Assembly: GCA_964404735.1 (NCBI GenBank)
Contig: CAYOLA010000031.1
Location: 1,958 to 65,957 of the forward strand
Direction: 5' to 3'
Source of the DNA: an uncultured Bacteroidales bacterium
GTDB lineage: Bacteria; Bacteroidota; Bacteroidia; Bacteroidales; B18-G4
DNA: 64,000 nt
Shown here: in pieces, positions 26,196 to 56,595 of the stretch
Numbering within the stretch: position 1 is the first letter of the stretch
How the letters are laid out: each line of letters starts with the position of its first letter
Position numbers and translations under genes: made by a program
The notes under the pieces: model-generated
The model's database searches: none
What the model saw: only the letters and a program-made list of their open reading frames with translations
Told to the model about the DNA's origin: nothing

Positions 26196-26228
26196 TTTTT
26201 AAAAATTTATATGTTAACGCTTATCTGA

Positions 26229-27149: not shown

Positions 27150-27255
27150 TGTTTTATTTTATTGTTTACATTCTTTAAAGGCAATTGCCTGGTAGCACTG
27201 TGATCAATGGTCCGGGCAATTTAGATACTAAACACGTTCCGGTGTCTGGTAATGA

Positions 27256-27642: not shown

Positions 27643-27648
27643 GATAAC

Positions 27649-28101
27649 TTACTTTGTTTTGATTTTGTATTCTTTCGGTTGTTGTGCTTCCTGTTTGTGT
27701 TCAGGGCCTGTGTAAACATAAAGGTTCCTGAACAGCTGGCTGCCCAGCCTGTTTTTGGGAAGCATGCCTTTCACGGCATTTTCCACGAGGCGTTCAGGGT
27801 ACTTCGCCAGCACCTCTTTTGCGGTTCTGCTGCGTTGCCCCCCCGGGTAACCCGAATGGCGGATATATTCCTTGTCGTCCCATTTGTTTCCGGTCAGCCT
27901 GACCTTTTCGGCATTGACGATCACCACATTGTCGCCACAGTCTACATGAGGGGTAAATTCGGGTTTGTGTTTGCCCCGAAGAAGCATTGCCACTTCTGAT
28001 GCCAGCCTTCCGAGGATCATGCCGTCCGCATCGATCAACAGCCATTCCTTGTTGACCGTCTGGTTGTTCGCGCTGCGCGTTTTGTAACTTAAAGTATCCA
28101 T
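27649..28101 (-). CDS. rplM: 50S ribosomal protein L13
   Basis: [48 protein letters not shown] is a classic L13 sequence. Confidence 0.93.
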
Positions 28102-38893: not shown

Positions 38894-40552
38894 ATGAAAA
38901 AAACACTGACTACACTCTTCGCTTTACTTTTGGTTTTAAGTTTTTCATTCGCGCAGCAGGTTGCCCGCGAAAAGGTAGTGCTGGAGATTGGTACCGGCAC
39001 ATGGTGTCCCTTCTGCCCGGGAGCTTCGATGGGAGCCGATGACCTGATCGCCAACGGGCATGATGTTGCCGTTATCAAATACCACAATGGCGACAACTAC
39101 ACCAACGCTGCCTCCAATGCCAGAAACAGCTATTATAATGTTAGCGCGTACCCGACCGCTCATTTCGACGGGGGTCTGCCTTATGCGAACGGAAGTGCCA
39201 GCCAAAGCCTTTATCCGCAGTATTTGCCCCGTTACAACCAGAAAATTGCCATACCTTCATCCTTCACCGTCGACATTGAAGGAACCTCGTCGGGGCTGAT
39301 CGATTTCAACATTGATGTAACCATTGAAATGGTCGACCCCTATTCGGGTTCCGACATCCGCCTGCACTGCGTGATCACCGAATCGGATATCCAGCAATAC
39401 TGGCAGGGACAGGACCACCTGAATTACGTGGAGCGGATGATGCTGCCGACTCATTCCGGTATACAGCTCGATTTTTCGGGAGGAAACATTATCGAACAAA
39501 ACTATAGTTTCGCACTCGACCCATCATGGAATGCCGAACATTGTGAGATCGTGATCTTCCTTCAGGAAAACGGCAGCAAGGTGATCCTGCAGGGTTCACT
39601 GCGCGAGCTGATCGACATGGGGAACGTGAACAATTATGATGCCTCACTATCGCAACTTTCCAATCTGCCTGTAAAAACCTGTGCCGGCATTTTCGCCCCT
39701 TCCTTCATCCTGCGTAATAACGGAAACGAAAATCTCACCAGTATCACCTTACAATACCAGGTAAATAACGGAGAACTAAGCACCTATGACTGGACAGGCG
39801 ACCTTGAGTTTCTTGAAGAAGAACTGATTTACCTTCCGGAAATCGCCTTTGCCCCCGAAGAGGAGAACCTGCTCATGATCTATTCGGAAAACCCCAACGG
39901 CAACCCCGACCAGTACCCGCTCAACGACACGATCGTTGCGGTGGTTCCTCTTGCCGATATCGTCCCGGCTGATGTAAACCTGATCCTGAGGACCGACAAC
40001 AATCCTTCGGAAACCACCTGGGAAGTTTTGGATGATATGGGCAATGTTGTTTATTCGGGCGGGCCATACACACAAGCCAGCCAAACCATCATGGAAAGCT
40101 TTGAACTCCAAAACCTGAGCTGTTACCAGTTTTTTGTTTACGATGCCGGTGGCGACGGGCTGAACTCACCGGGCTTCTTTGCCCTGTATTACGGCAGCAA
40201 CAGCTATATCCTGCAGGGTGTCGGCGACTTTGGCTTTATGTTGGGAACGGATTTTCAAACCGACGATGACACAGACATTGACGAGCTGGCAGGAAACCCG
40301 ACAATACAGGTTTATCCGAACCCATTCAGCGATCACACAAACATTGCACTTACCACACAAACGTTCAGCCATGTAAAAGTGATGATGTTCAACATCCTTG
40401 GCAAAAAAGTTTATGAATCTGATGAAGGCATGCTTGCCGCAGGCGAACACCTGATCGGGCTCAATGCAGCTAACCTGGAAAATGGTGTTTATCTTATCAG
40501 ACTGATGGTGAATGATTTAATGATCACCGAGCGGGTGATGATCTCTAAATAG
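38894..40552 (+). CDS. Omp28-related/thioredoxin-fold secreted protein with T9SS C-terminal sorting domain
   Basis: Signal peptide, GTGTWCPFCPGA (a CxxC in a thioredoxin-like context, as in Omp28-related proteins), and a C-terminal T9SS-type domain (IQVYPNPFSDHTNIAL...GVYLIRLMV...VMISK). Confidence 0.7.
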   Translation: MKKTLTTLFALLLVLSFSFAQQVAREKVVLEIGTGTWCPFCPGASMGADDLIANGHDVAVIKYHNGDNYTNAASNARNSYYNVSAYPTAHFDGGLPYANGSASQSLYPQYLPRYNQKIAIPSSFTVDIEGTSSGLIDFNIDVTIEMVDPYSGSDIRLHCVITESDIQQYWQGQDHLNYVERMMLPTHSGIQLDFSGGNIIEQNYSFALDPSWNAEHCEIVIFLQENGSKVILQGSLRELIDMGNVNNYDASLSQLSNLPVKTCAGIFAPSFILRNNGNENLTSITLQYQVNNGELSTYDWTGDLEFLEEELIYLPEIAFAPEEENLLMIYSENPNGNPDQYPLNDTIVAVVPLADIVPADVNLILRTDNNPSETTWEVLDDMGNVVYSGGPYTQASQTIMESFELQNLSCYQFFVYDAGGDGLNSPGFFALYYGSNSYILQGVGDFGFMLGTDFQTDDDTDIDELAGNPTIQVYPNPFSDHTNIALTTQTFSHVKVMMFNILGKKVYESDEGMLAAGEHLIGLNAANLENGVYLIRLMVNDLMITERVMISK

Positions 40553-41423: not shown

Positions 41424-43448
41424 TTACTCCATATTCAACAGTTTTTCATCAACCATGTTCGGCAGGGTGACTTTCAGCAGCGGCTCGGTCTTCATGGCCC
41501 GTTTGATGGCAAAGATTGCTTCATCATTTCTGGCCCAGCTCCGCCTGGCAATCCCATTATTCACATCCCAGTGCAGCATGCTTTTCAGGCGCCGGCCAGC
41601 GTCAGCGCTGCCGTCCAGCAGCATGCCAAAGCCCCCGTTGATGACTTCGCCCCAACCCACGCCGCCACCGTTGTGGACCGACACCCAGGTCGCCCCGCGG
41701 AAGCTGTCGCCGATCACATTCTGTATAGCCATATCGGCCGTGAATTGCGAACCGTCATAGATATTGGATGTTTCACGGTATGGGGAATCAGTTCCCGACA
41801 CGTCGTGGTGGTCTCGTCCGAGCACGATGGGCGCGCTGACCTCCCCTTTTCTGATGGCTTCATTAAAAGCATCCGCTATGCGAGTACGCCCTTCGCAATC
41901 GGCATAGAGTATCCGTGCCTGCGAGCCCACCACCAACTTATTTGCCTCTGCCTGTTTGATCCAGCGAAGGTTATCGTTTAGTTGCTGTTTTATCTCGTCC
42001 GGAGCATCACCAGCCATCCTTTCAAGGATGCCGGCTGCTATACTGTCAGTGGTGCGCAAATCCGCCGGATCGCCCGAAGTGCATACCCAGCGGAAAGGGC
42101 CAAATCCGTAATCGAAACACATGGGGCCCATAATATCCTGCACATAGGACGGATAGCGGAAAGTGCCATCCTCCTTCATAATGTCGGCCCCCGCCCTTGA
42201 AGACTCCAGCAGAAAGGCATTGCCATAATCGAAAAAATACATGCCACGGGCAGCGAGGGTGTTAATGGCGGCTACCTGTCGCTGCAGCGACTCCTTTACC
42301 TTTTCTTTAAAAGCAACCGGATCTGCGGCCATCAGTCTGTTCGATTCCGTAAAGCTGAGCCCGGCCGGATAATAACCCCCCGCCCAGGGGTTGTGCAGTG
42401 AAGTCTGGTCGGAACCCAAATCAATTCGGATATCGCGTTTAACAAGCTCCTCCCAGAGGTCCACGATATTTCCCTGGTAAGCCAGTGACACGGCTTCCTT
42501 CGCATCACTGGCCCTGAGCATCCGTTCAATGAGTTGACCAAGGTTCGTATAAAGTTCATCAACCCATCCCTGCCGGTGTCTTTTCTCTGCCGCCGAAGGG
42601 TTGACTTCGGCAATCACCCCTACTGCACCAGCGATAACAGCGGCTTTGGCCTGTGCCCCCGACATTCCTCCCAGACCTGATGAGATAAAAATCCTTCCTC
42701 CCAGGCCTGCCTTACCGTCCTTCAACTTCCTTCCGGCATTGAGCACGGTGATGGTTGTACCGTGCACAATCCCCTGCGGGCCGATATACATGTATGATCC
42801 GGCAGTCATCTGACCATACTGCGACACCCCAAGCGCATTAAACCTCTCCCAGTGATCGGGGCTTGAATAGTTGGGAATGACCATGCCATTGGTTACCACC
42901 ACCCGCGGGGCGTCGGAATGGGAAGGGAAAAGCCCCAGTGGATGCCCCGAATACATGACCAGGGTTTGTTCACCGGTCATCTCAGCCAGGTATTTCATCG
43001 TCAGCAGGTATTGCGCCCAATTCTGGAAAACTGCTCCGTTGCCCCCATAGGTGATGAGCTCATGGGGATGCTGGGCCACGGCAGGGTCAAGGTTATTCTG
43101 GATCATGAGCATGATGGCGGCAGCCTGCGGCGAGCGTGCCGGATATTCACCGATCGGCCTGGCATGCATGGGGTAATCAGGTCTGAAGCGGTACATATAG
43201 ATCCGGCCATACCGCTTCAGCTCATCGGCAAACTCCCCGGCCAGCACAGCATGATGTTTCGGATGAAAATAGCGTAGTGCATTTTTCAGGGCAAGCCTTT
43301 TTTCATCTGTCGTGAGAATATCTTTTCGCACCGGGGCATGGCTCACACTGTCATCAAATATCTTCGCAGCGGGTAACTCCCCGGGTATGCCCTGCAAAAT
43401 TATCTTCCTGAATTCTTCTGTATTCATGCGCAATGGGTTTTCTTTCAA
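41424..43448 (-). CDS. hutU: Urocanate hydratase
   Basis: 674 aa with LITYGGNGAVFQNW, GLGGMSGAQ and ATWVSVHNGGGVGWGEVINGG, which are characteristic urocanase blocks. Confidence 0.9.
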   Translation of the reverse strand: MKENPLRMNTEEFRKIILQGIPGELPAAKIFDDSVSHAPVRKDILTTDEKRLALKNALRYFHPKHHAVLAGEFADELKRYGRIYMYRFRPDYPMHARPIGEYPARSPQAAAIMLMIQNNLDPAVAQHPHELITYGGNGAVFQNWAQYLLTMKYLAEMTGEQTLVMYSGHPLGLFPSHSDAPRVVVTNGMVIPNYSSPDHWERFNALGVSQYGQMTAGSYMYIGPQGIVHGTTITVLNAGRKLKDGKAGLGGRIFISSGLGGMSGAQAKAAVIAGAVGVIAEVNPSAAEKRHRQGWVDELYTNLGQLIERMLRASDAKEAVSLAYQGNIVDLWEELVKRDIRIDLGSDQTSLHNPWAGGYYPAGLSFTESNRLMAADPVAFKEKVKESLQRQVAAINTLAARGMYFFDYGNAFLLESSRAGADIMKEDGTFRYPSYVQDIMGPMCFDYGFGPFRWVCTSGDPADLRTTDSIAAGILERMAGDAPDEIKQQLNDNLRWIKQAEANKLVVGSQARILYADCEGRTRIADAFNEAIRKGEVSAPIVLGRDHHDVSGTDSPYRETSNIYDGSQFTADMAIQNVIGDSFRGATWVSVHNGGGVGWGEVINGGFGMLLDGSADAGRRLKSMLHWDVNNGIARRSWARNDEAIFAIKRAMKTEPLLKVTLPNMVDEKLLNME

Positions 43449-43570: not shown

Positions 43571-43578
43571 TATCTTTG
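43571..43578 (+). promoter_or_regulatory. Candidate -7 promoter box TATCTTTG ahead of the adenylation/reduction cassette
   Basis: Exact TAnnTTTG match 25 nt upstream of ATG 43604, in a 155-nt intergenic region. No -33 TTTG. Confidence 0.35.
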
Positions 43579-43603
43579 GTCAGCCGAAACAGCGTAAACC
43601 AAT

Positions 43604-44872
43604 ATGAAGACCTATTCCCTTGAAACCATTGTTTCAGTTGCCCGCGAGTTATCGGAATATTACGGGCAACGCTATCGCAACCTACCACAAAAAGGCTGGA
43701 AGCTTTCTGAACTCCCTCCCGTCGACCAGGCCATATTCTGGGAATATAACCGGGTAGAAAACAACCGCCTGTTGACAGGGCCCATGACTGACGGCATCAT
43801 CTTCAAAAGCGGCGGCACGACGGGCATGCCCAAATTCTCGGTTTACAGCCGGGAAGAGTGGGAAACCATGACGGGTACCTTTGGCTACCATCTCGCCGAA
43901 AGCGGGCTGAAAAAAGGCGACCGGATTGCCAACCTTTTCTATGCCGGGGAGTTGTACAGCAGTTTTCTCTTCCTCCACGACAGCCTGGGACGCTGCCCGG
44001 TCGACACCATGCTGTTTCCTATCTCCGGGGCCTCTCCACTCGAATTTATTGCCCGGGAGCTTCGTGATTTTCGTATTAATACATTGCTGGGAGTACCGAC
44101 GCAACTGATCAGCCTGGCCGAGTATGTCAGGTCAAAACACTTAAAGGGCCTGAAGGTCGAAAAAATATATTTTGGCGGTGAAAGCATGTACGAGGATCAG
44201 CGTGAGCTGATGCATGAAGTATTCCCAGGGGTGCAGATTTATTCGGTGGGCTATGCCAGCGTTGACGGCGGACTGCTGGGCTATATCGATCCCGGATGCG
44301 GGTTCAACGAACACCGCGTGTTCGACGGTTACAACATCATAGAGATCATTGACGAGGACAGCGGTGATGTAATTGAAGAATGCAACAGGGAAGGACGCAT
44401 ACTCACCACCAACCTGTCGAGGCTGCTGATGCCCGTCATCAGGTACCCGGCAGGCGATCGCGGCATATGGGTGGAAGAAGCCGGAAAAGAAAACAGGAAA
44501 TTTAAAATAATGGGGCGATCGGAAGAGGGGGCCCGGATCGGGGTGGTTACCATGTATGTTGACAATTTCATGCACATCCTCCACCTCATGAAACCCTTAT
44601 TCCAGGCAGCCAACTTCCAGATGGTGATCGACCACATCGGGAAGCTCGACAAGCTTAGCCTGCGCATCGCCGTTGACGACCCTGCGGCGGTGCAGCCCGC
44701 ATGGGAAGAAGAGCTGCTCGACACCATCTTCAGCGAGCGGCCCGAATTCAGAGAAGAGATCGCCATCAAAGGCGTCCACCCCATCAGCATTGAATGGATT
44801 CGTCCGGAAGAGCTTGCTGTAAACCCGCGCACAGGCAAGATACGCCGCATTATCGACAACCGATTCAAATAA
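43604..44872 (+). CDS. PaaK-like adenylate-forming enzyme (phenylacetate-CoA ligase / F390 synthetase family)
   Basis: 422 aa with P-loop FKSGGTTGMPKFSVYS, TLLGVPTQL, KIYFGGESM, GYASVDGG, RYPAGDRGIWVEE and the terminal TGKIRRIIDNR (candidate A10 lysine). Confidence 0.75.
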   Translation: MKTYSLETIVSVARELSEYYGQRYRNLPQKGWKLSELPPVDQAIFWEYNRVENNRLLTGPMTDGIIFKSGGTTGMPKFSVYSREEWETMTGTFGYHLAESGLKKGDRIANLFYAGELYSSFLFLHDSLGRCPVDTMLFPISGASPLEFIARELRDFRINTLLGVPTQLISLAEYVRSKHLKGLKVEKIYFGGESMYEDQRELMHEVFPGVQIYSVGYASVDGGLLGYIDPGCGFNEHRVFDGYNIIEIIDEDSGDVIEECNREGRILTTNLSRLLMPVIRYPAGDRGIWVEEAGKENRKFKIMGRSEEGARIGVVTMYVDNFMHILHLMKPLFQAANFQMVIDHIGKLDKLSLRIAVDDPAAVQPAWEEELLDTIFSERPEFREEIAIKGVHPISIEWIRPEELAVNPRTGKIRRIIDNRFK

Positions 44873-44880
44873 ACCAACAT

Positions 44881-46056
44881 ATGTCAAAGTTTGAACAGCT
44901 ACAGGTTCCCGACCCGACTGCCCTGCAGGCCGTCCGGGAAATTTGCGAAATTGATGAGCCCTTCCGCACAGATGCTGACACGGACGAATTATTCCTGCAG
45001 GCCATGCGCGAGATCATGCAATGGCATTACGAACGATGCCCTTTTTACAGGAACTTCCTCGACAGGGAACAATTCAGCCCCGCCAAACTGAAGGGTATTC
45101 GTGACCTGCCGGCCATCCCTTTCATTCATGCCAACTTTTTCAAGACACATTCGGTAAAATCCGTCCGGGAAGAAGACATAGAGATCACCCTCACTTCCAG
45201 CGGCACCATGGGCCAGAAGAGCCGGATGTTCTTCGACCACTGGTCCATCGCCTCCGGCAGGCGGATGGTCGACTTTGTATACGACTACTTCGGATGGGTT
45301 AATCCCGAAAAAGAAACCAATTACCTGGTGAGCAATTATGAGCCCGAGGCAGGTTCAACGCGGGGCACAACCAACACCAGCCGCTTTCTGACCAAATACG
45401 CCCCGGCCAGGCATATCAATTATGTACTTCGGCTGACCGGGGAAGGTACGCATGAGTTCGACCTTTTCGGCAGCATAGCGGTGCTGAAACAATATGAAGC
45501 CGAAGCGATCCCGGTCAGACTGATCGGCTTCCCCTCATTCATCTTTTTTATCCTGGAAAGGATGAAGAACCTGGGCGTGAAGGACCTTCGTCTGCCCGAA
45601 GATTCCCTGGTCTTCTTTGCCGGCGGGTGGAAGGGCTATGCCGACCGGCAACTCTCCAAACCTGAGCTATACGGACGCCTGGGTGAGCAACTTGGCATCC
45701 CCGACTTCCGCTGCCGCGACGGCTTTGGCTCGGTCGAACACTCGGTGCCTTACATAGAATGTGAACGGCATCATATGCACGTCCCGGTCTGGTCCAGGGC
45801 ATTCATCCGTGATGTAAGAACCCTTGAAGTGCTGGGTTACGAAAAGCCCGGCTATCTCAGTTTTGTAACGCCCTACATCACCTCCGTGCCTGCCATCAGC
45901 GTTGTGATGGGCGACCTGGCCGTGATGCACCCGCCCGAAGCATGTGGATGCGGCATCAACACGCCCTGGTTTGACATTGCCGGCAGGGCCGGATTATCCA
46001 AAAACAAGAGCTGTGCCGTTTCGGCTGCCGAACTGCTCAAAAAAGAAGCCGTATAA
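44881..46056 (+). CDS. LuxE-family acyl-protein synthetase-like adenylating enzyme
   Basis: 391 aa from ATG 44881; the 44794 start overlaps the previous gene. N-terminal ...CPFYRNFL..., LPAIPFIHANFFK, TSSGTMGQKSRMF and FFAGGWKGY fit my recollection of the LuxE family pattern. Confidence 0.65.
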   Translation: MSKFEQLQVPDPTALQAVREICEIDEPFRTDADTDELFLQAMREIMQWHYERCPFYRNFLDREQFSPAKLKGIRDLPAIPFIHANFFKTHSVKSVREEDIEITLTSSGTMGQKSRMFFDHWSIASGRRMVDFVYDYFGWVNPEKETNYLVSNYEPEAGSTRGTTNTSRFLTKYAPARHINYVLRLTGEGTHEFDLFGSIAVLKQYEAEAIPVRLIGFPSFIFFILERMKNLGVKDLRLPEDSLVFFAGGWKGYADRQLSKPELYGRLGEQLGIPDFRCRDGFGSVEHSVPYIECERHHMHVPVWSRAFIRDVRTLEVLGYEKPGYLSFVTPYITSVPAISVVMGDLAVMHPPEACGCGINTPWFDIAGRAGLSKNKSCAVSAAELLKKEAV

Positions 46057-46066
46057 AATTATCATT

Positions 46067-48580
46067 ATGAAAAATAAGGAATATATCTGGAGAGGTGAAT
46101 GGATCAGCGAAGCTGAATTCGGAAAGAAAGCGGGCAACATTGGCCGCGACATGGCCCCCGACCTTCGGCTGCGCCTGGAACCGGCCACATTGTTCCGCGC
46201 CTGTGCCCGTTACAGGGACCTTTTGCTGGAAGGCGACTCACAGGAACTCATCGACTCCCTTGTGCAGGCCGGCAACACCCCTGAACATGCCCATCAGACC
46301 ATTGAAGAAATTGTTGCCTTTCTGGATCCGGGCTTTCTGGAAGAAAAAATGAAAAGGGAACTGGGGAGCGACAATCCCTTTATCCTTCACCGAAACAACT
46401 TCCGCAACGACACTTTTGAAGCCTGGGCACCCCTGGGCATGCTGGTACACGTAGTGCCGGGAAACGCCCCGACGGTGGCACCGCTCAGCGTGCTGGAAGG
46501 ACTCATGGCCGGAAACATCAACGTGCTTAAGAACAGCAGCAGAAACGGCAACTTCCCGCAGCTTATCCTGAAAGGCATCGTGGATGCCGATCCCTCCGGC
46601 ACCCTCAAGCCTTTCGTATATGCCTTCCGCCTGTCCTCTTCACGCCAAGACATCCTCAGTATCCTCTTCAATGAAGCCCACGGCATTGCCGCATGGGGCA
46701 GTGAAGAGTCGGTGGCCTCCGTGAGGCGGATGACCCCTGAGAACACCCGCATCATCGACTGGGGGCACCGCATCAGCTTCTCCTACGTGAGCAGGAAGAT
46801 GAAGGACGATGTTGTTACCCTTGAAAACATAGCCTACGACATTTGTGTGATCGAGCAGCAGGCCTGTTCCAGCCCGCAATGCCTTTACCTCGAAACCTCC
46901 GCCAGGGATGAACTGATGGCCTTTGCGCACAACTTTGCGGAAGTGCTCGACAGGGTCTCGCAGCGCTTTTCCCAGCCGAAACTGAGCATCGCTGAGATGG
47001 CCGAGATCACCAATGTGACCCAGGTCACCAGGCTGGGCGCTGCATTGGGCGAGTCGGAAGTAATTGAATCTGCCGGGAAGACCTGGCGGATACTGATCGA
47101 TTTTAAGCCGGGCCTGCGCCCATCACCGCTGTATCGAACGATCTGGGTGAAACCGCTTCCGAAAGACAAGATCGTAAGCACCCTCAGGCCCCTGAGAAAT
47201 TATCTGCAAACAGCAGGGCTGGCCTGTAAGCTGGAAGAGCTTGGAAGCATGAGCCGGGAGCTTTTACAGGCCGGCGTGACCCGCATCAAGCGGCCCGGCC
47301 ATCACCTCGACGGCTATGCCGGTGAGCCCCACGACGGGGTGTACGCCCTGCAACGTTATTGCCGGCGGATATGCCTGCAGCTTGGCAACCTCACTGACGG
47401 CATCACCAGCTTCGCCGACCTGGAAGAGCAAGCGGCACCCGTACTACCTGCCAACACCCCCGTCATCCATAAAGATGAATATATCAGGAAAAAAGTGCCG
47501 GAGAGGTTTTCAGAACTCTTTTTTAAGAGCGGGGGTACAAGCGGAAAGCCCAAGATGGCTGTTTATACCTACGAAGACTATCACAAACAGATGTTTGCCG
47601 CTTCCGAGGCCCTCTTCGCCGCCGGCCTCGATCCAACCACCGACCGCTGCATGAACCTATTCTTCAGCGGAGAACTGTACGGGGGCTTCATCAGTTTCTG
47701 GACCATCCTCGAAGGCATGGGGGCCATACAGTTTCCCATGACAGCCGTCCCCGACTACGGACATGTGGCCCAAACCATCATCGACAACAAGGTGGACACC
47801 CTCCTGGGGATGCCATTCTACTTTTCACAGCTTTTCGAAGCCTGCAAAAAAGAGCTGAAGGAATATGGCGGCATTCGTAAGATCTTTTATGCCGGTGAGC
47901 ATATGAGCAAGGCCATGCAGCAATATTACAAGGATGAATTTGGGGTGGAAGTGGTCAAGTCGGCCATATACGGCAGCAACGACGCCGGGCCGCTCGGCTA
48001 TAGCTGCACCCGTTGCGAAGGCAGCATCCACCACGTGATGACCCGCACCCAGTTCCTGGAGATATTTAAAATGGAGGAAGACAAACCCGTTGACAAAGGA
48101 GAAACAGGCAGGCTTATCTTCACCAGCCTTTCAAGGAAAGGGCAGAACCTTTACCGCTATGAGATCGGCGACCTGGGACGCTGGGTTGAAGAGCCCTGCC
48201 CCTGCGGAAGAAAAGCCCCGCGCTTTGAGTTGCTTGGCCGTTTCGGCGACATCTTCAAGATGGGGCCGCTCTTTAACTATAACACCTTTGCCAGGACACT
48301 GGAAAACAGCTTTGGCTATAAAGATGAGCTGCAATTGCTGCTCGACACCGCCGGGGCAGGCAAACAAAAGATCAGCGTGCGGCTGAACCGGAATGCCGGA
48401 CTGGACACGAAAGAAGTATGCGAGGCTCTGCTGGAAGGCGATCCCGTGTTGTACGACATGGTCATGAACGACAACCTCATTGAGCTTGAAGCGAAACCGG
48501 TGGATGGCACCGCCTTCACCAAGATCGAAACCAGCGGCAAACTGCAAAAGATCATCGACAAACGCAAACAAACCTCATGA
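46067..48580 (+). CDS. Fusion protein: LuxC-type acyl-CoA/acyl-protein reductase (N-terminal ~440 aa) plus a second PaaK-like adenylating module (C-terminal ~390 aa)
   Basis: 837 aa from ATG 46067. The N-terminal half has HVVPGNAPTVAPLSVLEGLMAGNINVLKNSS and EQQACSSPQ (a candidate catalytic Cys in an ALDH-like fold), as in LuxC. The C-terminal half has FFKSGGTSGKPKMAVYT, TLLGMPFYF, KIFYAGEHM, RYEIGDLGRWVEE and SGKLQKIIDKR, colinear with 43604-44872. Confidence 0.7.
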   Translation: MKNKEYIWRGEWISEAEFGKKAGNIGRDMAPDLRLRLEPATLFRACARYRDLLLEGDSQELIDSLVQAGNTPEHAHQTIEEIVAFLDPGFLEEKMKRELGSDNPFILHRNNFRNDTFEAWAPLGMLVHVVPGNAPTVAPLSVLEGLMAGNINVLKNSSRNGNFPQLILKGIVDADPSGTLKPFVYAFRLSSSRQDILSILFNEAHGIAAWGSEESVASVRRMTPENTRIIDWGHRISFSYVSRKMKDDVVTLENIAYDICVIEQQACSSPQCLYLETSARDELMAFAHNFAEVLDRVSQRFSQPKLSIAEMAEITNVTQVTRLGAALGESEVIESAGKTWRILIDFKPGLRPSPLYRTIWVKPLPKDKIVSTLRPLRNYLQTAGLACKLEELGSMSRELLQAGVTRIKRPGHHLDGYAGEPHDGVYALQRYCRRICLQLGNLTDGITSFADLEEQAAPVLPANTPVIHKDEYIRKKVPERFSELFFKSGGTSGKPKMAVYTYEDYHKQMFAASEALFAAGLDPTTDRCMNLFFSGELYGGFISFWTILEGMGAIQFPMTAVPDYGHVAQTIIDNKVDTLLGMPFYFSQLFEACKKELKEYGGIRKIFYAGEHMSKAMQQYYKDEFGVEVVKSAIYGSNDAGPLGYSCTRCEGSIHHVMTRTQFLEIFKMEEDKPVDKGETGRLIFTSLSRKGQNLYRYEIGDLGRWVEEPCPCGRKAPRFELLGRFGDIFKMGPLFNYNTFARTLENSFGYKDELQLLLDTAGAGKQKISVRLNRNAGLDTKEVCEALLEGDPVLYDMVMNDNLIELEAKPVDGTAFTKIETSGKLQKIIDKRKQTS

Positions 48581-50064
48581 CCGGGTTCCATCATTCAAAG
48601 CTCAGCATACAGAACCGCATCGATTACCTGCCGGAAGCGGAAGCATTTGTTGAAAAAATATCGGAGATCAGCGGGTTCAGCAGGCACGACAACAAACAGG
48701 TGCAGCTGGCCCTGGAAGAGATCCTGACCAACATCATCAAATATTCTTTTTTACCCGGCCAAAAAGGAAATATCGATCTGGAATTTATCCAAATGCCGGC
48801 CGGGCTGCAAATCCATATCCGGGTGAAGGGTATCCCCTTCGACCCCGCACTCTTCCCGGTATACAGCAAAGAAGAGCTGGAAAAGAATTACAACGACCGC
48901 GGGCTGGGCACCTTCCTGGTCGGGCAGGTCATGGATGAATTGTCGTACGTGAACCATGGCCATGAGGGGATCGAGGTCATCCTTATGAAACATCTCCCGA
49001 CCCGTTCCATCGGGCAGATGATCGATGCCGGGGAAACGGAAGCCATGGAGCATGGCAAAGAGCAGGCAAAGAGCCAGACAGTGTTTACGACCGGGCCGAT
49101 GCAGGCGCACGAAGCGGTTGAAGTTTCGCGCCTTGCCTATTATTGTTACGGATACAGCTATCCCTACGAGAACATCTATTATCCCCAAAAGGTAGCGCAA
49201 CTGAACAGGTCGGGGCAGCTTGTATCCTGGCTTGCCAGAACCGGCAATGGGGAGATCATCGGCCATTCGGCACTGAACATGGCACATGGGAACAATGCAG
49301 AGATCGGCATAGCATTCAGCAACCCCTTATACCGCGGCATGGGCGTGATGAACAGCCTTTGGGAAGACCTAATCGGAAAAGCCGTGAATATGCGCATCTG
49401 CGGTTTTTATGCCATGACCGTAACCACCCATCCCTATTCCCAGAAAGCGGCGCACCATTTCGGCATGCACGACTGCGTGCTGCTGGTGTCGCGGGTGCCC
49501 ACACTGAAATTCAGGGATATCAGGGAAGATATACATCCCAGGGAAAACATCATGATCACCTACCGTTACCTCCATCCTCCTGCCCGGCTCATCCTGCATC
49601 CTCCGCCCAGGCATCGCAAAATGATCATGGACATCATTGGCAACACCGGGGTTAAAGCCGAATATCCCGTAACGAAACCGGAATTGTCCCGGCTGGAGAG
49701 AAAGCGGACCAGGCTGAGCATTCATCGCAACAGGGACTTCATCACAGCCACCATCCGGATCGATCATTATGGCGCGCACACGGCCGACAGGGTCAGGGAT
49801 GCACTGAAAAGCCTGTGTATAGGCAGGTATGAAACCATATACCTCTACCTGAACCTGAACGACCCCTTTACCGCACTTCTGTGTCCTGAATTTGAGACCC
49901 TGGGCTTCTTCTTTGCAGGCGTTTTCCCGGGCGATGAAAACAACACTTTCCTCGTTTTACAATACCTGAACAACCAGTTGATGGATTACGGACTAATGAA
50001 GCTTGATGAAGGATTTGGCAGCGTGCTTGCCCATTATGTAAAAAACTGCGACCCCGGTCAGTAA
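48577..50064 (+). CDS. Fusion protein: RsbW/SpoIIAB-type anti-sigma serine kinase domain plus GNAT acetyltransferase domain plus an unassigned C-terminal region
   Basis: 495 aa. The HATPase_c_2-like N-box is LALEEILTNIIKYSF and the G-box is DRGLGTFLVGQVMDELSY. The GNAT core is GEIIGHSALNMAHGNNAEIGIAFSNPLYRGMGVMNSLW. No motif was recognised in the last ~200 aa. 4-nt overlap with the upstream gene. Confidence 0.65.
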   Translation: MTGFHHSKLSIQNRIDYLPEAEAFVEKISEISGFSRHDNKQVQLALEEILTNIIKYSFLPGQKGNIDLEFIQMPAGLQIHIRVKGIPFDPALFPVYSKEELEKNYNDRGLGTFLVGQVMDELSYVNHGHEGIEVILMKHLPTRSIGQMIDAGETEAMEHGKEQAKSQTVFTTGPMQAHEAVEVSRLAYYCYGYSYPYENIYYPQKVAQLNRSGQLVSWLARTGNGEIIGHSALNMAHGNNAEIGIAFSNPLYRGMGVMNSLWEDLIGKAVNMRICGFYAMTVTTHPYSQKAAHHFGMHDCVLLVSRVPTLKFRDIREDIHPRENIMITYRYLHPPARLILHPPPRHRKMIMDIIGNTGVKAEYPVTKPELSRLERKRTRLSIHRNRDFITATIRIDHYGAHTADRVRDALKSLCIGRYETIYLYLNLNDPFTALLCPEFETLGFFFAGVFPGDENNTFLVLQYLNNQLMDYGLMKLDEGFGSVLAHYVKNCDPGQ

Positions 50065-50666
50065 TTCTCGGGGATATTCTTCATGATGTTGAAAATGAAT
50101 TCACGGGCACGGAAAAGCTGTGCCTTCACGGTGCCGAGCGGCAGATTCAACTCTTCAGCAATCTCTTCGTAGGAATATTCTTTATAATACCGCAGTTCGA
50201 CAAGGGTACGGTAATGGGGCTTCAGTTTTTCCACCACTTCACGCATCAGCCCGATCTTTTCCTTTTTTATGACCTTTTCCTCGGGATCGGGGCTGTCGGA
50301 GGCAACGATGTTGGCCAGATCCTGACCCTCATCACCTTCTGTGCCAAGGTTAACCGCAAACGACTGCTTTCTCTTTTTCCGCATATAATCGATGCAGTTG
50401 TTTGAAGCGATCTTGAACAGCCATGTGCTGAAAGCGTAATCGGGGGTGTATTGTTCAAGTTTCTTGAATGCCTTTCCGAATGCTTCAATGGTAAGATCAT
50501 CCGCATCGCTGGCATTATTGGTCATCTTCAGCAGCATGAAGTAAAGCGAATCGCGGTAATTGTTCATCAGGGCGGCGTAGGCTTTCTGGTCGCCACGGCT
50601 AATGGCTGCCATCACCAGCTGATAATCACGCAGGGCTTTATCGGTGAGATTTGGATTTACTTCCAT
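50058..50666 (-). CDS. RNA polymerase sigma-70 family (ECF-type) sigma factor
   Basis: 202 aa. Region 2 has DLTIEAFGKAFKKL...FSTWLFKIASNNCIDYMRKK and region 4 has YSYEEIAEELNLPLGTVKAQLFRAREF. The start overlaps the upstream GT2 stop by 10 nt. Confidence 0.85.
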   Translation of the reverse strand: MEVNPNLTDKALRDYQLVMAAISRGDQKAYAALMNNYRDSLYFMLLKMTNNASDADDLTIEAFGKAFKKLEQYTPDYAFSTWLFKIASNNCIDYMRKKRKQSFAVNLGTEGDEGQDLANIVASDSPDPEEKVIKKEKIGLMREVVEKLKPHYRTLVELRYYKEYSYEEIAEELNLPLGTVKAQLFRAREFIFNIMKNIPENY

Positions 50667-51820
50667 TTATCAGGTTTTCTGATCATATTTGCCAGGCCCA
50701 GCACCGGGTAAATGATAATCAGGAATATTTCCGCCATAGGCGAAAGTAATAATAATTCCTTTTCGTTCAGCCTGATCATACTTTTTTTCGTGATCAGCAG
50801 ATGGCTGAAAAAGCGGATGGCAAATATGCCGCCGCCGACAAGCAGATTATATCCAGACACCATCGTGGCTGCAAACAGGAGCATAAAGGCGAGGGTGCTT
50901 CCCGACCAGCCGCCCAGCAACCATTTATATTTTTTCCTGTAATGTTTCCAGGTAGTGAAATGCCTCCTTTTCTGCCGCATCCAGGCCCCGAATGAGGTTT
51001 TTGGCACGGAAACGGTATGGCTTTGATGGCTTACTTCAACGGCAACGTTATTCCGCGAGGCAGCCCGGTTAATAAACAGGTCATCATCGCCCGAAGAAAG
51101 TTTATAGTGTGATGAAAAGCCTTTGTTCCTGTAGAAAAGCGATTTCCGGTAAGCGATATTCCGCCCCACCCCCATATAAGTATGTCCCGCCAGGGAAAAC
51201 GACAGGTACTGTATGGCGACCCAGAGTGTTTCGAAGCGGATCAGATAGTTGAGCAGCGAAGGCCTTCGCTCGTATGCGCCATAGCCGAGAACGATCTCCT
51301 TGCCTTCGCGGAAACCCGATGTCATACTGCTGATCCAATGCGAAGAGGCAGGACGGCAATCGGCATCGGTCAGCAGCAGTATCTCATTGGCGGCAGACTT
51401 GATGCCAAGCGAAAGCGGGAATTTCTTGCCATGAAAAAAGTTCAGGTCCTGACTGAGATTCACCACTTTAAGATTACTGTGTTCGCGGGCCATGTCGTTG
51501 AGCAACTCCAGGGAGTCGTCCTGCGAATTGTCGTTTACCACTACAACCTCAAAATCCGGGTATTCCTGGCGGAGGATTAGCGGCAGGTTATTTTTCAGGT
51601 TATCGTATTCGTTACGGGCGCAGATCACGACGGAAACGGGGCCTGCACCGGGTTTTTCGTCCCGGGCCTTTAGAAAGGCGAGCCTCCTGAAAACCACCCA
51701 CAGGTAGCACATCTGGATCAAAAACGCCAGCAAATAAGCCGCCATAAGCACTTGCTCAAGCGGTTCGGAAGGAAAATAAGGAAGCTGCATCACAACCGGT
51801 CTTGCCGCTAAATTATCCAT
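50657..51820 (-). CDS. Membrane-anchored family 2 glycosyltransferase
   Basis: GT2 motifs VSVVICARNEYDNL, VVVVNDNSQDDS, LLTDADC and SGDDDLF, with N- and C-terminal TM helices. ATG 51820 is chosen because the longer track ORF (to 52105) runs antisense into tgt. Confidence 0.8.
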   Translation of the reverse strand: MDNLAARPVVMQLPYFPSEPLEQVLMAAYLLAFLIQMCYLWVVFRRLAFLKARDEKPGAGPVSVVICARNEYDNLKNNLPLILRQEYPDFEVVVVNDNSQDDSLELLNDMAREHSNLKVVNLSQDLNFFHGKKFPLSLGIKSAANEILLLTDADCRPASSHWISSMTSGFREGKEIVLGYGAYERRPSLLNYLIRFETLWVAIQYLSFSLAGHTYMGVGRNIAYRKSLFYRNKGFSSHYKLSSGDDDLFINRAASRNNVAVEVSHQSHTVSVPKTSFGAWMRQKRRHFTTWKHYRKKYKWLLGGWSGSTLAFMLLFAATMVSGYNLLVGGGIFAIRFFSHLLITKKSMIRLNEKELLLLSPMAEIFLIIIYPVLGLANMIRKPDKWK

Positions 51821-51837
51821 TCTTCGCGAATAAAAAT

Positions 51838-51845
51838 TATCTTTG
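51838..51845 (+). promoter_or_regulatory. Candidate -7 promoter box TATCTTTG upstream of tgt
   Basis: Exact TAnnTTTG match 20 nt upstream of ATG 51866. Confidence 0.35.
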
Positions 51846-51865
51846 AACGAATTTTTATAAACAAC

Positions 51866-52996
51866 ATGAAGTTTATAATTCAGGCCACCGACACCCACAG
51901 CCATGCCCGCGCCGGCATAATTGAAACCCCGCACGGAACGGTAGAAACACCGGTATTTATGCCCGTCGGCACCGCCGCCAACGTTAAGGCCGTTCACATG
52001 CGTGACCTCAGGGACGACAGCCGTGCCCGGATCGTACTGGGAAATACCTACCATCTTTACCTGCGGCCCGGAACAGAGGTGTTGCAGCAGGCAGGCGGCT
52101 TGCATGCCTTTACCGGCTGGGAAGGCCCCATGCTCACCGACAGCGGGGGTTACCAGGTGTATTCACTGACCGGGATCAGGAAGCTCAGGGAAGAAGGGGT
52201 TACTTTCCAGTCGCACATCGACGGCTCAAAACATACATTCACACCCGAAAGCGTGATCGATATCCAGCGCATCATAGGGGCCGACATCATCATGGCCTTC
52301 GACGAGTGTACGCCATATCCCTGCGATCACGACTACGCCAAAAAATCGATGGATATCACCCACCGCTGGCTGAAACGTTGTGCCGACAGCTTTGCCGGCA
52401 CCGAAGCCCGCTACGGCTACCCGCAATCATTATTCCCCATCGTTCAGGGCAGTGTATACCCCGAACTCAGGAAGACATCGGCCGGCATTATCAGCAGCTA
52501 CGAAGCCGACGGCAACGCCATCGGCGGTCTTTCGGTGGGCGAGCCCCATGAACTGATGTATGAAATGACCGGACTGGTATGTGAGATACTACCAACCGAC
52601 AAGCCGCGTTATCTGATGGGTGTGGGCACACCGGCCAATATCCTGGAAAGCATCGCGCTGGGGGTTGACATGTTCGACTGCGTAATGCCCACAAGGAACG
52701 GGAGGAACGGGATGCTGTTTACCGCCGAAGGAGTGATCAATATGCGCAACAATAAATGGAAAGACGACTTTTCGCCGCTGGATGAAGAAGGCACGTCCTT
52801 TGTCGACCAACAGTACACCAAAGCATACCTGCGGCATCTTTTCATTTCGGGGGAAGTACTGGGCGGGATGATCGCCAGCCTGCACAACCTTGCCTTTTAC
52901 AGCCGGCTGATGCGTGAAGCCAGGGAACAGATACAGGCAGGCACCTTCGGCGCATGGAAAAGCAGCATGGTAAAAAAATTAAATACAAAGCTTTAG
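51866..52996 (+). CDS. tgt: Queuine tRNA-ribosyltransferase (tRNA-guanine transglycosylase)
   Basis: ARAGIIETPHGTVETPVFMPVGT, LTDSGGYQV, GLSVGEP, MGVGTP and FDCVMPTRNGRNG. Confidence 0.93.
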   Translation: MKFIIQATDTHSHARAGIIETPHGTVETPVFMPVGTAANVKAVHMRDLRDDSRARIVLGNTYHLYLRPGTEVLQQAGGLHAFTGWEGPMLTDSGGYQVYSLTGIRKLREEGVTFQSHIDGSKHTFTPESVIDIQRIIGADIIMAFDECTPYPCDHDYAKKSMDITHRWLKRCADSFAGTEARYGYPQSLFPIVQGSVYPELRKTSAGIISSYEADGNAIGGLSVGEPHELMYEMTGLVCEILPTDKPRYLMGVGTPANILESIALGVDMFDCVMPTRNGRNGMLFTAEGVINMRNNKWKDDFSPLDEEGTSFVDQQYTKAYLRHLFISGEVLGGMIASLHNLAFYSRLMREAREQIQAGTFGAWKSSMVKKLNTKL

Positions 52997-55083: not shown

Positions 55084-56595
55084 ATGGCACTCATCAATTC
55101 CCTCATATCATGGCTGATGAAAAAGCGCTATCACCAGATCGAGCTTTTTACCAAATATCCGCATGAGGTTCAGGCCGAATGGCTGAAGAAACTACTGAAT
55201 ACCGCCCGCGACACGGAATGGGGAAAACGCTACGAATTCAAAACCATCGATTCCTATGAGAAGTTCCGTAGCCGTATCCCCCTGATCGACTATGAATCGA
55301 TACACCCCGAGATTGAGCTGCTCATGAAGGGCCATCAGAATATCATGTGGCCGACCGACATCAGGCTTTTTGCCAAATCGGCCGGGACCACCAGCGAAAA
55401 AAGCAAGTTCATTCCGGTAAGCAATGAATCGATCGAAGAGTGCCACTTCAAAGGCGGAAAAGATATGCTGGCCATGTACTGCCATAATCACCCCGACACC
55501 CATCTCTTTGACGGGCGCGGGCTGGCCATGGGCGGCAGCCACATCATCCGGGAAGTCAACAATGAGGAATACCTCATCGGCGACCTTTCGGCGCTCATTA
55601 TCCGAAAACTTCCCCACTGGGCCGAATTCATCAGGGTTCCCAAGCGCAGCCTCGCCCTGCTCGACGAATGGGAGATCAAGATCGAAAAAATGGCCCATGC
55701 CACCATCCCCCACAACGTGACCAGTCTCTCGGGCGTTCCTTCCTGGACCCTGCTGCTGCTGAAACGCATCCTCGACATCACCGGCAAAAACAACATATTG
55801 GAAGTATGGCCCAACATAGAGGTATTCTTCCACGGTGGCGTGAATTTCGACCCCTACCGCAAGCAGTTCGAAGAGCTGCTGCCATCGCCCGACATCAATT
55901 ACAAGAATACCTACAATGCATCCGAAGGTTTCTTCGGGCTGCAGGAGGCCGACCAGGACGACCTGCTGCTGATGCTTGACTATGGCATTTATTACGAGTT
56001 TATACCCGTATCGGAACCCGACAGCGAACAGCCGACAGCCCTGCCCCTCCGGGAGGTTGAGACCGGTGTAAACTACGCCATGGTGATCACCACCAACGCC
56101 GGCCTCTGGCGTTATAAGATCGGCGATACGGTGATGTTTACCTGTACCGACCCTTACCGGATCAAGATCACCGGACGTACCAAAAGCTTTATCAATGCCT
56201 TCGGCGAGGAGCTGATCGTTGACAATGCCGAAAAAGCGCTGGATGTGGCCAACGGAAAATGCAATTCGGTGATCAGCGACTATACAGCCGCCCCGGTGTA
56301 TTTCGAGGGCCGGGAAAAGGCCGCCCACGAATGGCTGATCGAATTTGAAAAAGAACCGGAAAACCTCGACTTCTTCGCCGAGGCCCTGGATAACGCCCTT
56401 AAGTCGGTTAACTCCGACTATGAAGCCAAACGCTACCACGACATGGTGCTGCGTAAACCCATTGTACGAATCCTGCCTCCCCATACGTTCTATAACTGGA
56501 TGAAAAAACGCGGCCGCCTCGGCGGGCAGAATAAAGTGCCCCGGCTATCGAACGACAGGCGCTATGTTGACGACATCCTCGATATGATCAAATGA
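55084..56595 (+). CDS. GH3 (auxin-responsive promoter) family adenylate-forming protein
   Basis: 503 aa. The N-terminus ...HEVQAEWLKKLLNTARDTEWGKRY... and the blocks FAKSAGTTSEKSKFIPVS, YNASEGFFG and RYKIGD match bacterial GH3-family proteins. Confidence 0.8.
   Translation: MALINSLISWLMKKRYHQIELFTKYPHEVQAEWLKKLLNTARDTEWGKRYEFKTIDSYEKFRSRIPLIDYESIHPEIELLMKGHQNIMWPTDIRLFAKSAGTTSEKSKFIPVSNESIEECHFKGGKDMLAMYCHNHPDTHLFDGRGLAMGGSHIIREVNNEEYLIGDLSALIIRKLPHWAEFIRVPKRSLALLDEWEIKIEKMAHATIPHNVTSLSGVPSWTLLLLKRILDITGKNNILEVWPNIEVFFHGGVNFDPYRKQFEELLPSPDINYKNTYNASEGFFGLQEADQDDLLLMLDYGIYYEFIPVSEPDSEQPTALPLREVETGVNYAMVITTNAGLWRYKIGDTVMFTCTDPYRIKITGRTKSFINAFGEELIVDNAEKALDVANGKCNSVISDYTAAPVYFEGREKAAHEWLIEFEKEPENLDFFAEALDNALKSVNSDYEAKRYHDMVLRKPIVRILPPHTFYNWMKKRGRLGGQNKVPRLSNDRRYVDDILDMIK

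Follow-up and report, generated by a model that had tools for sequence, protein, structure and literature searches.

Leupeptin is a protease inhibitor that the leupABCD operon makes without a non-ribosomal peptide synthetase (NRPS), and dipeptide-aldehyde NRPSs are known from gut Clostridia. The leup locus has been found to be needed for leupeptin, the product being acetyl-Leu-Leu-argininal, and work on K. oxytoca has described a mutant with leup deleted as well as leupeptin and a pyrazinone derived from it (PMC11480411), while leupeptin in Streptomyces roseus comes from an NRPS cluster (bioRxiv 10.1101/2020.10.26.356543). The LuxC-LuxE fatty-acid reductase of lux operons also yields an aldehyde: the acid is adenylated, LuxE acylates itself on a C-terminal cysteine, and the acyl group then moves to a cysteine of LuxC and is reduced with NADPH (PDB 7xc6; PMC9157457).

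Judged by its sequence, the cassette described herein is a distant relative of leupABCD in an uncultured Bacteroidales bacterium. Within a 64-kb stretch of DNA (the window), it comprises four genes on the + strand: g1 (43604-44872, 422 aa), encoding a LeupC-like PaaK-family adenylate-forming ligase; g2 (44881-46056, 391 aa; an internal ATG of ORF 44794-46056), a LeupA-like LuxE-family acyl-protein synthetase; g3 (46067-48580, 837 aa; an internal ATG of ORF 45944-48580), a LeupB-like LuxC::PaaK didomain protein; and g4 (48577-50064, 495 aa), a three-domain RsbW-like::GNAT fusion. The original prediction, made from the sequence alone, had placed the genes at these positions, and the ORF coordinates agree with its gene boundaries and same-strand packing; with a g1-g2 gap of 8 nt, a g2-g3 gap of 10 nt and a g3/g4 overlap of 4 nt, a single operon is likely, as it had proposed. 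The Bacteroidetes -7 consensus is TAnnTTTG, which is fitted by TATCTTTG (43571-43578, + strand), a candidate -7 promoter element read from the sequence and located, as predicted, 25 nt before the ATG of g1. The upstream neighbour, hutU (41424-43448), is divergently oriented. All the peptide motifs that had been quoted (SGGTTGMPK, SSGTMGQKS, SGGTSGKPK, GGWKG, the HVVPGN...NSS block, EQQACSSPQ, EEILTNIIKYS and DRGLGTFLV) were found in the translations, and the domain assignments of all four proteins were recovered with Pfam and NCBIfam (g1 via NCBIfam).

The published primers leupA_f and leupB_r give an amplicon of 1,235 bp (PMC8283571, Table 1). Three human-gut metagenome contigs (L067, L068 and L072), retrieved with the LuxC::PaaK protein, match both primers exactly at the published spacing of 1,235 bp, and therefore represent the Klebsiella leupeptin operon, i.e., an MFS transporter followed by leupABCD. 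The genes of L067 span 5,828 nt (5,831 nt published), in the order listed for NC_016612.1 (MFS, LuxE-family, acyl-CoA reductase, PaaK-family, GNAT). In BLASTP comparisons, the window proteins paired with this operon in a fully reciprocal, one-to-one manner (g2 with LeupA, g3 with LeupB, g1 with LeupC and g4 with LeupD). Both operons thus encode a LuxE-like LeupA, a LuxC::PaaK LeupB, a PaaK-like LeupC and a tandem-GNAT LeupD (identities of 50, 39, 39 and 32%, respectively, with a profile probability of 99.9% for LeupD), both are tightly packed on one strand, and the catalytic cysteines are conserved. They differ in gene order (A-B-C-D in leupABCD, C-A-B-D in the window), in the LeupD-like protein of the window, whose N-terminus is extended by an RsbW-like HATPase_c_2 domain (about 140 aa) and a linker, and in host, since leupABCD belongs to gammaproteobacteria (Klebsiella michiganensis/oxytoca, Photorhabdus, Xenorhabdus) and the window to a Bacteroidales bacterium. 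Moreover, leupABCD has an MFS exporter, whereas no MFS or MatE exporter adjoins the cassette in the window.

The four genes co-occur across phyla: of the 44 related loci that were flanked on both sides by 2.5 kb or more, all 44 had LuxE, 41 a separate PaaK, 41 a LeupD-like gene and 28 an MFS gene. The occurrence of the cassette far outside Gammaproteobacteria looks new. The gene set had not been recognised as a characterised system, but it matches a characterised pathway, as the gene-for-gene homologue of leupABCD from Klebsiella, Photorhabdus and Xenorhabdus. We therefore consider it probable that this is a leup-type operon whose enzymes assemble, independently of any NRPS, a leupeptin-like protease inhibitor in the form of an N-acylated short-peptide aldehyde, and in which the N-terminal domain of g4 would act as a regulatory module; the product is possibly a precursor of pyrazinone signals.

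In the proposed route, the LeupD-like tandem-GNAT part of g4 would N-acylate the first amino acid from acyl-CoA, and the two PaaK-type adenylating units, one being g1 and the other the C-terminal part of g3, would supply one peptide bond apiece via an acyl-adenylate. Subsequently, g2 would adenylate the C-terminal carboxylate of the acyl-peptide and load it onto its own Cys378. Cys267 in the g3 LuxC domain would then take over the acyl-peptide, and this domain would reduce the thioester to the aldehyde with NAD(P)H; the RsbW-like domain of g4 would make the initial N-acylation responsive to a STAS/PP2C partner-switching signal. The count of parts (two ligase units, one reducing unit and one capping GNAT) appears to fit acetyl-Leu-Leu-argininal, with which the work of Li et al. 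2020 (Angew Chem 59:17872) is reportedly consistent, and the enzyme-by-enzyme roles of LeupA-D are presumably those given here. Gene-for-gene homology to leupABCD, the conserved cysteine pair and adenylation motifs, and the co-occurrence of the genes are observed directly, whereas the bond assigned to each ligase, the amino acids used and the nature of the acyl cap are inferred. With just 31-50% identity to the characterised Leup proteins, the cassette may use other substrates or even make a peptide of another length. If the route holds, the product class would be the same as that of the NRPS routes of Streptomyces roseus and gut Clostridia, namely short, protease-inhibiting peptide aldehydes, although the machinery is unrelated: the cassette has no condensation, thiolation or NRPS reductase domains and instead uses discrete ligases and a LuxCE-type reductase.

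The g2 protein matches Pfam LuxE (5.9e-34), and BLASTP aligns 373 aa of it with LeupA at 49.6% identity (E 1e-132). Its predicted acyl-accepting residue, Cys378 (nt 46012-46014), lies in NKSCAVS, which aligns with QKGCSLS of P. phosphoreum LuxE, within the TRxxKGCxLS motif that holds Cys364, and a cysteine occupies this position in all 74 family members found. The g3 protein, which shows 38.8% identity to LeupB in a 762-aa BLASTP alignment (E 1e-178), consists of a LuxC-type thioester reductase domain (aa 60-433, nt 46244-47365, + strand; Pfam LuxC, 1.5e-82) and a PaaK-type ligase domain (aa 485-837, nt 47519-48577, + strand; Pfam AMP-binding, 2.8e-11). Its catalytic Cys267 (nt 46865-46867), predicted from the alignment of EQQACSSPQ with DQQACFSTQ of LuxC in PDB entry 7xc6, was invariant among 16 diverse homologues, as were the CxCGR motif and the C-terminal GK. 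The previously suggested acid to adenylate to thioester to aldehyde step is thus present, Cys378 and Cys267 being aligned with the cysteines that become acylated in the LuxE/LuxC complex of Photobacterium, and the last step shares its chemistry with the lux reductase. In contrast to lux, the operon contains no luxD or luxAB, LuxC is fused to a PaaK-type ligase, and the substrate is likely an acyl-peptide rather than myristate. The LuxE and LuxC matches also fall far under the NCBIfam equivalog cut-offs (98 vs 550 bits and 71 vs 750 bits, respectively), as does the PaaK match (67 vs 646 bits).

These shortfalls bear on the model of the original prediction, a generic carboxylic-acid reductase in which PaaK makes the CoA thioester of an aryl or fatty acid, LuxE/LuxC release the free aldehyde and the kinase/acetyltransferase protein exerts control. 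The Pfam LuxE and LuxC matches with their conserved acyl-cysteines speak in its favour, and LuxC/LuxE homologues are known in lipid-type contexts, e.g., flagellin glycosylation islands. However, such contexts in the literature are accompanied by ACP, FabG and CaiC-type ligases, none of which lies between hutU and the sigma-factor gene downstream of g4, and each of the four genes has a single counterpart in leupABCD, which yields a peptide aldehyde; we thus regard this model as unlikely. Among solved structures, those of PaaK come closest to the ligase domains, which speaks for it as well. The PaaK family (COG1541) of adenylate-forming enzymes includes amide-forming members, e.g., DdaG and BagE/FevW, and shares with the window units the P-loop, the motif CxCGR and a lysine in a C-terminal GK. 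Neither unit is a PaaK equivalog (67 and 52 bits, cut-off 646). For g1, with its P-loop SGGTTGMPK and C-terminal GK(I)RRIID motif, Pfam returned a sub-threshold AMP-binding match only, and NCBIfam PaaK/DVU_1553-like matches (E 1e-18 to 7e-20) were far under equivalog cut-offs, whereas similarity to Klebsiella LeupC reached 38.5% over 418 aa (E 8e-97, BLASTP), higher than to the C-terminal domain of LeupB (25%). Since the cassette is homologous gene for gene to leupABCD, both units are more likely peptide-bond-forming ligases than the aryl/acyl-CoA ligases first suggested; if leup is a guide, they probably join amino acids instead of synthesising phenylacetyl-CoA, and g1 is proposed to form one of two peptide bonds.

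The g4 protein joins an RsbW/SpoIIAB-like HATPase_c_2 domain (aa 12-137, nt 48610-48987, + strand; Pfam HATPase_c_2, 2.9e-15), through a disordered linker, to a LeupD-like module (aa 171-495, nt 49087-50064, + strand; Pfam Acetyltransf_1, 1.3e-6), in which a GNAT domain reaching to about aa 312 is followed by another, divergent GNAT-like domain (aa 313-495). Similarity to LeupD was evident in BLASTP (31.5%, E 2e-14) and in hhalign, where the g4 family (aa 171-461) aligned with the LeupD family (aa 3-271) at a probability of 99.9% (E 4e-32). In Foldseek searches with the AlphaFold model (pLDDT 83), the N-terminal domain matched SpoIIAB/RsbW (TM 0.73-0.89 relative to target), the middle domain matched GNATs, best of all the small-molecule or N-terminal acetyltransferases RimI, SpeG and phosphinothricin acetyltransferase, and the C-terminal domain (pLDDT 89) matched solely GNATs, weakly (E 6e-4, TM 0.34-0.46). 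Regulated protein acetyltransferases with a regulatory-domain::GNAT architecture are known, and g4 resembles them; a Pat/AcuA-like lysine acetyltransferase that silences the three adenylating enzymes via their catalytic lysine, with no pathway role, would find its target in the GK motif kept in both PaaK-type units. E. coli PatZ was indeed among the Foldseek matches, albeit at rank 33 with TM 0.13-0.23 and an rmsd of 20 Å. We hold this reading to be very improbable, as the best structural matches are not Pat, the leupeptin N-acetyl cap needs an enzyme such as LeupD, and 41 of the 44 loci combine a LeupD-like gene with the ligases, among them loci that lack the regulatory domain. The GNAT module, homologous to LeupD, would rather be a pathway enzyme for the N-acyl cap than only the regulator originally envisaged.

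Beside g4 lies an ECF (SigW-like) sigma-factor gene (50058-50666, - strand; Pfam Sigma70_r2/r4 and NCBIfam SigW-like matches), convergent with g4 and overlapping its end by 7 nt. This adjacency, together with the RsbW/SpoIIAB fold of the g4 N-terminal domain, would suit an anti-sigma factor that wires the cassette to transcription, a reading that we hold to be very improbable. The sigma gene is probably part of the transcription unit of a glycosyltransferase, since it overlaps that same-strand upstream gene by 10 nt and is convergent with g4. The arrangement that had been emphasised is real in the window but is kept only in close relatives (L001-L003 and L009, from Bacteroidales/Bacteroidota contigs). 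L004, whose g3 is about 74% identical, lacks it, as do L012-L014 and nearly all metagenome loci. In other lineages just L017 and L023 had weak (25-31%) sigma-like matches, placed unlike that of the window, and a sigma-like match of any kind occurred in only 6 of 88 related loci, mostly close relatives. To our knowledge, RsbW-type anti-sigmas act on group-3 sigma factors, not on SigW-like ECFs, and the family-wide neighbourhood partners are STAS and PP2C proteins. We judge the sigma gene not to be part of the system, its adjacency being an accident of local synteny.

We propose instead that the RsbW-like domain of g4 binds other proteins in a regulatory role. The domain shares the fold and the N-box Glu48/Asn52 with the RsbW/SpoIIAB anti-sigma serine kinases, but it is fused to an enzyme rather than acting on a sigma factor, scores 38 bits against NCBIfam RsbW (cut-off 145), and has Val83 in place of the ATP-contacting G1-box Asp in the window's clade, where it has probably lost ATP binding; this substitution looks new. 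In the window's organism the domain could be vestigial, because the kinase-type Asp is missing and phmmer found no STAS or PP2C relative of the query proteins elsewhere in the 64-kb window. The same search gave no MFS relative either. Many lineages have the domain joined to LeupD, and in lineages other than that of the window STAS, RsbW and SpoIIE-type PP2C genes can adjoin the fusion: such genes were neighbours in 6 of the 13 loci that have the HATPase fusion vs none of 31 without it (hypergeometric p about 2e-4, phylogeny ignored). The predicted wiring through a kinase-type domain may survive in a changed form, as STAS/PP2C partner switching, and this extra, putatively regulatory domain, with STAS/PP2C neighbours solely in fusion loci, looks new and previously undescribed. 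Proteins of the g4 family outside leup clusters also adjoin STAS and PP2C::RsbW genes, and in a clade without LeupC the neighbouring MatE exporter carries a HATPase_c_2 domain as well.

The original prediction described four tightly packed same-strand genes, and the ORF coordinates agree with it: g1 (PaaK-like, 43604-44872, +), g2 (LuxE-like, 44881-46056, +), g3 (a LuxC::PaaK fusion, 46067-48580, +) and g4 (an RsbW-like::GNAT fusion, 48577-50064, +) are co-directional, with spacings of 8, 10 and −4 nt, the last being a 4-nt overlap. The element TATCTTTG lies at 43571-43578, 25 nt 5' of the first ATG (that of g1). Upstream of g1 stands the divergent urocanase gene hutU, and downstream a convergent ECF sigma-factor gene, sharing 7 nt with the end of g4. 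A scan of the cassette region for sigma-70 promoters and terminators returned nothing better than shuffled sequence. Every peptide motif quoted in the prediction was found in the cassette, and its domain assignments were recovered by Pfam, which finds LuxE in g2 (5.9e-34), LuxC (1.5e-82) plus an AMP-binding domain in g3, and HATPase_c_2 (2.9e-15) plus a GNAT domain in g4; g1 is PaaK/DVU_1553-like. At the equivalog level, the window proteins missed the NCBIfam cut-offs for LuxE, LuxC, PaaK and RsbW widely (LuxE, 98 bits vs. a cut-off of 550; LuxC, 71 bits vs. 750; PaaK, TIGR02155, 66.9 bits for g1 and 52.2 bits for g3 vs. 646.3). Since the operon between hutU and the sigma gene consists of the four described genes only, it holds neither luxD nor luxAB. 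A lipid-type LuxC/LuxE context, as in flagellin-glycosylation islands, was set aside, as those islands use ACP, FabG and CaiC-type genes.

The idea that this gene combination is uncharacterised proved wrong, since BLASTP and profile-profile matches map the cluster onto leupABCD, the leupeptin operon known from Klebsiella, Photorhabdus and Xenorhabdus. The primers leupA_f and leupB_r for the leup locus, with an amplicon of 1,235 bp (PMC8283571), match three human-gut contigs (L067, L068 and L072) with 0 mismatches, and their distance in all three is 1,235 bp, equal to the published amplicon size. The four-gene span of L067, our Klebsiella-type reference, is 5,828 nt vs. 5,831 nt published for leup, and because primer matches, amplicon size and gene span agree, L067 is a genuine leupABCD locus. 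The published arrangement is also the commonest one among the related loci found here. When compared with the Leup proteins, g2 matched LeupA (49.6% identity, 373 aa aligned, E 1e-132), g3 matched LeupB (38.8%, 762 aa, E 1e-178), g1 matched LeupC (38.5%, 418 aa, E 8e-97) and residues 176-319 of g4 matched LeupD (31.5%, 146 aa, E 2e-14). For every window protein its own Leup counterpart beat the paralogue, with g1 closer to LeupC than to the C-domain of LeupB. Profile-profile comparison aligned residues 171-461 of g4 with residues 3-271 of the LeupD family at a probability of 99.9%, and the motif (S/T)HP(Y/H)(S/T)Q is common to g4 and LeupD.

Because the proteins match Leup one to one, the window carries a leupC-A-B-D' operon, in which the D gene has an extra N-terminal domain. 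The features shared with leup are a LuxE-family LeupA with a C-terminal cysteine, a LuxC::PaaK LeupB, a separate LeupC, a GNAT LeupD and the grouping of the four genes in one co-directional cluster. The order is permuted relative to leupABCD, and the same C-A-B-D order is seen in other Bacteroidota loci. The Klebsiella locus has an adjacent MFS transporter, whereas the window cassette has none, and no MFS relative was found in the 64-kb window; the transporter is an accessory and not a biosynthetic feature of leup. Judged by homology, the window cluster is a predicted, distant member of the leupeptin-type pathway. What is new with respect to the known leup clusters is the phylum, the permuted order, the absence of a linked exporter and the RsbW-like domain on the capping enzyme.

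The predicted aldehyde-forming step was borne out by conservation of the acyl cysteines of the LuxE and LuxC homologues. In g2, Cys378 (NKSCAVS) aligns with QKGCSLS of Photobacterium LuxE, which a cryo-EM paper places in the motif TRxxKGCxLS with Cys364 (PMC9157457), and a cysteine occupies this position in 74/74 relatives. The LuxC domain of g3 retains the QQAC cysteine (Cys267), invariant across the 16 diverse homologues aligned, and the P-loop, a CxCGR motif and the GK lysine near the C-terminus are conserved in both PaaK-type units (g1 and the C-domain of g3). Leupeptin is acetyl-Leu-Leu-argininal, for which a GNAT for the cap, two ligase units and an ATP/NADPH-dependent carboxylate-reducing pair would be the exact tally; from this enzyme count we infer which enzyme would supply which part. 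The leup pathway reportedly laid out by Li and co-workers in 2020 agrees with the assignment of roles. Genetic support comes from published work: a leup deletion mutant has been described, and activation of the leup cluster led to leupeptin and a leupeptin-derived pyrazinone (PMC11480411). Since identity to the Leup proteins is 31-50%, the Bacteroidales product may differ from leupeptin in its amino acids, its acyl cap or even its peptide length. One clade, which includes human-gut contigs, has no separate LeupC gene, and would fit a one-ligase, shorter-peptide variant.

Our genome scan, which used one genome per species, recovered four Bacteroidales/Bacteroidota MAG loci that share the four genes and their order (g3 identity 74-90%), and the closest named relatives of the window were uncultured Bacteroidales MAGs; the window sequence also matches contig ML8_10000153 of JGI metagenome 3300001335. 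The LuxC::PaaK fusion was present in 1,196 proteins of the protein collection (E < 1e-5), and full-length g3 identities of 44-58% were found in Lentimicrobium, Azorhizobium, Pseudochelatococcus, Dokdonella, Contendobacter, Sulfuricellaceae, Bdellovibrionales, Elusimicrobiota, Armatimonadetes and Magnetomoraceae. All four genes occur, in two gene orders, on Azorhizobium-like, Dokdonella and Lentimicrobium contigs, and the metagenome scan contributed 80 further loci. Among the 44 related loci with at least 2.5 kb of flank on both sides, the LuxE gene adjoins LuxC::PaaK in all 44, a separate PaaK-type gene and a g4-like GNAT gene are each adjacent in 41, and an MFS transporter gene is adjacent in 28, so that the four genes proposed as one cassette do co-occur across several phyla. 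The g4 gene was rejected as the defining gene of the system, since distant members of its family (in Desulfomonile, Syntrophomonadaceae and other Bacteroidales) stand without LuxC/LuxE neighbours, which also means that the g4 family is broader than the cassette.

In one group of loci (L055-L094, e.g., L076 at 2757-8760), the neighbours of the leup-like cluster are an MFS gene, confirmed by Pfam, and iron-associated genes, here a PvdQ-like acylase and a FecR-like protein, together with a chemoreceptor; the last three were identified by eye in cluster representatives. On account of them, our guess is that this clade consists of pseudomonads. The Klebsiella leupeptin-derived pyrazinone has been reported to induce siderophore genes (PMC11480411). 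An iron/siderophore link of the cassette was dropped, as the neighbours amount to clade-specific synteny in one large clade.

The sigma-factor gene onto which the prediction had the cassette backed is convergent with g4, and it adjoins the cassette in close relatives only, being missing from that position in the related locus L004 and in loci of other lineages. It overlaps the glycosyltransferase gene, upstream on its own strand, by 10 nt and thus probably belongs to the glycosyltransferase transcription unit. We treat its adjacency to the cassette as coincidental synteny. The mechanically called ORF of the GT2 glycosyltransferase (50657-52105, −, 482 aa) overlaps the start of tgt (51866-52996, +) by ~240 nt; as public gene calls assign this sequence a protein of 387 aa, translation probably begins further in than its first in-frame ATG.

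The AlphaFold model of g4 (pLDDT 83) has three parts. The N-domain is RsbW/SpoIIAB-like (Foldseek matches to SpoIIAB/RsbW, E 3e-8), the middle part is a GNAT domain by Foldseek, and the C-terminal domain, modelled alone (pLDDT 89), matches GNATs only and weakly (Foldseek E 6e-4, TM 0.34-0.46). This last domain is GNAT-like in the model, with matches too weak to assign a function, and because it matches only GNATs we read the LeupD module as a probable tandem GNAT. There is no N-domain in the Klebsiella-type LeupD (305 aa) or in its relatives of that clade; across many lineages, a HATPase-type N-domain is fused to LeupD in 30/88 loci. With RsbW/SpoIIAB, g4 shares the HATPase_c_2 fold and the N-box, whose residues Glu48 and Asn52 are present, but it lacks the G1-box Asp, as Val83 aligns with the Asp of RsbW 'ADEGDSFD' that contacts the ATP adenine. 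The G1-box position is Val in the window and in the related loci L001-L004, L009 and L015, while it is Asp in 17/21 other leup-linked fusions. In the window clade, the N-domain may be either a binding module of pseudokinase type or a vestige.

Genes for STAS, RsbW and SpoIIE-type PP2C proteins adjoin the cluster at 6/13 fusion loci with full flanks vs. 0/31 loci without the fusion, a comparison among loci that are not phylogenetically independent. Proteins of the g4 family outside leup clusters also adjoin STAS and PP2C::RsbW genes, and in the LeupC-less clade the MatE exporter likewise bears a HATPase_c_2 domain. From the STAS/RsbW/PP2C neighbours and the MatE::HATPase_c_2 fusion we propose that the first step of the pathway is under partner-switching control, and the evidence points to such control of export too in some clades. 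For RsbW/SpoIIAB, a cognate STAS protein and a sigma target would be expected nearby, whereas in the window the neighbour is a SigW-like ECF factor and neither STAS nor PP2C genes were found within the 64 kb. Our literature search on partner switching and GNAT fusions found no paper. The joint reading that we put forward, tentatively and as something short of an even bet, is that leup-type, NRPS-independent peptide-aldehyde clusters form a widespread, cross-phylum family (Bacteroidota, Alpha-/Beta-/Gammaproteobacteria, Elusimicrobiota, Armatimonadetes and others) whose output, in many lineages, would be under post-translational control by partner switching. The RsbW-like domain, which is fused to LeupD as the first enzyme and in some clades also to the MatE exporter, would on this reading be bound or released by a STAS protein whose phosphorylation state a sensor PP2C sets; the window Bacteroidales clade would then carry a derived, ATP-independent pseudokinase form.

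The MatE exporter gene follows LuxC::PaaK in loci without LeupC (L061, 8535-10280; also L049, L053, L054, L069 and L092), and its product has a C-terminal RsbW-like HATPase_c_2 domain (Pfam MatE 3e-21, HATPase_c_2 3e-8); to our knowledge, no transporter::anti-sigma-kinase-like fusion has been described. In two further loci (L008, 9170-11509; L010, 7638-11877), RsbW-like::GNAT::GNAT-like proteins of ~500 aa are encoded without LuxC, LuxE or PaaK neighbours and directly adjoin genes for STAS, RsbW and dCache-HAMP-SpoIIE::HATPase_c_2 proteins. Given these neighbours, g4-family proteins seem to serve partner-switching modules generally as an output.

Few protease inhibitors are used as widely as leupeptin. 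Descriptions of its discrete-ligase pathway are confined to a few gammaproteobacterial pathogens, and the literature covered here regards the pathway as narrow in distribution (PMC11480411). Provided that the homologues are active, this route to peptide aldehydes and derived pyrazinone signals would be common among anaerobes of the environment and the gut, Bacteroidota included, and genome mining centred on NRPS would miss it. With four genes each, the cassettes would offer a compact source of new protease inhibitors, and the capping GNAT with its fused RsbW-like domain and its STAS/PP2C neighbours would exemplify partner switching acting on a biosynthetic enzyme and not on a sigma factor.

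Elsewhere in the window, a 503-aa ORF at 55084-56595 (+) is syntenic with a Pfam-annotated gene of the related locus L009, which places it in the GH3 (acyl-acid amido synthetase) family; this further adenylate-forming enzyme lies ~5 kb downstream, is conserved in the related genome and has no obvious link to the cassette. Two ORFs at 37541-38647 (−) and 38894-40552 (+) have signal-peptide-like N-termini and C-termini that, by eye, resemble type IX secretion sorting domains, and close to the N-terminus of the second is a WCPFCP motif like that of thioredoxins. The interval 26001-28000, which overlaps the minus-strand ORFs 25359-26195 and 26229-27149, has an AT skew, −0.277, that lies far from the values elsewhere in the window.
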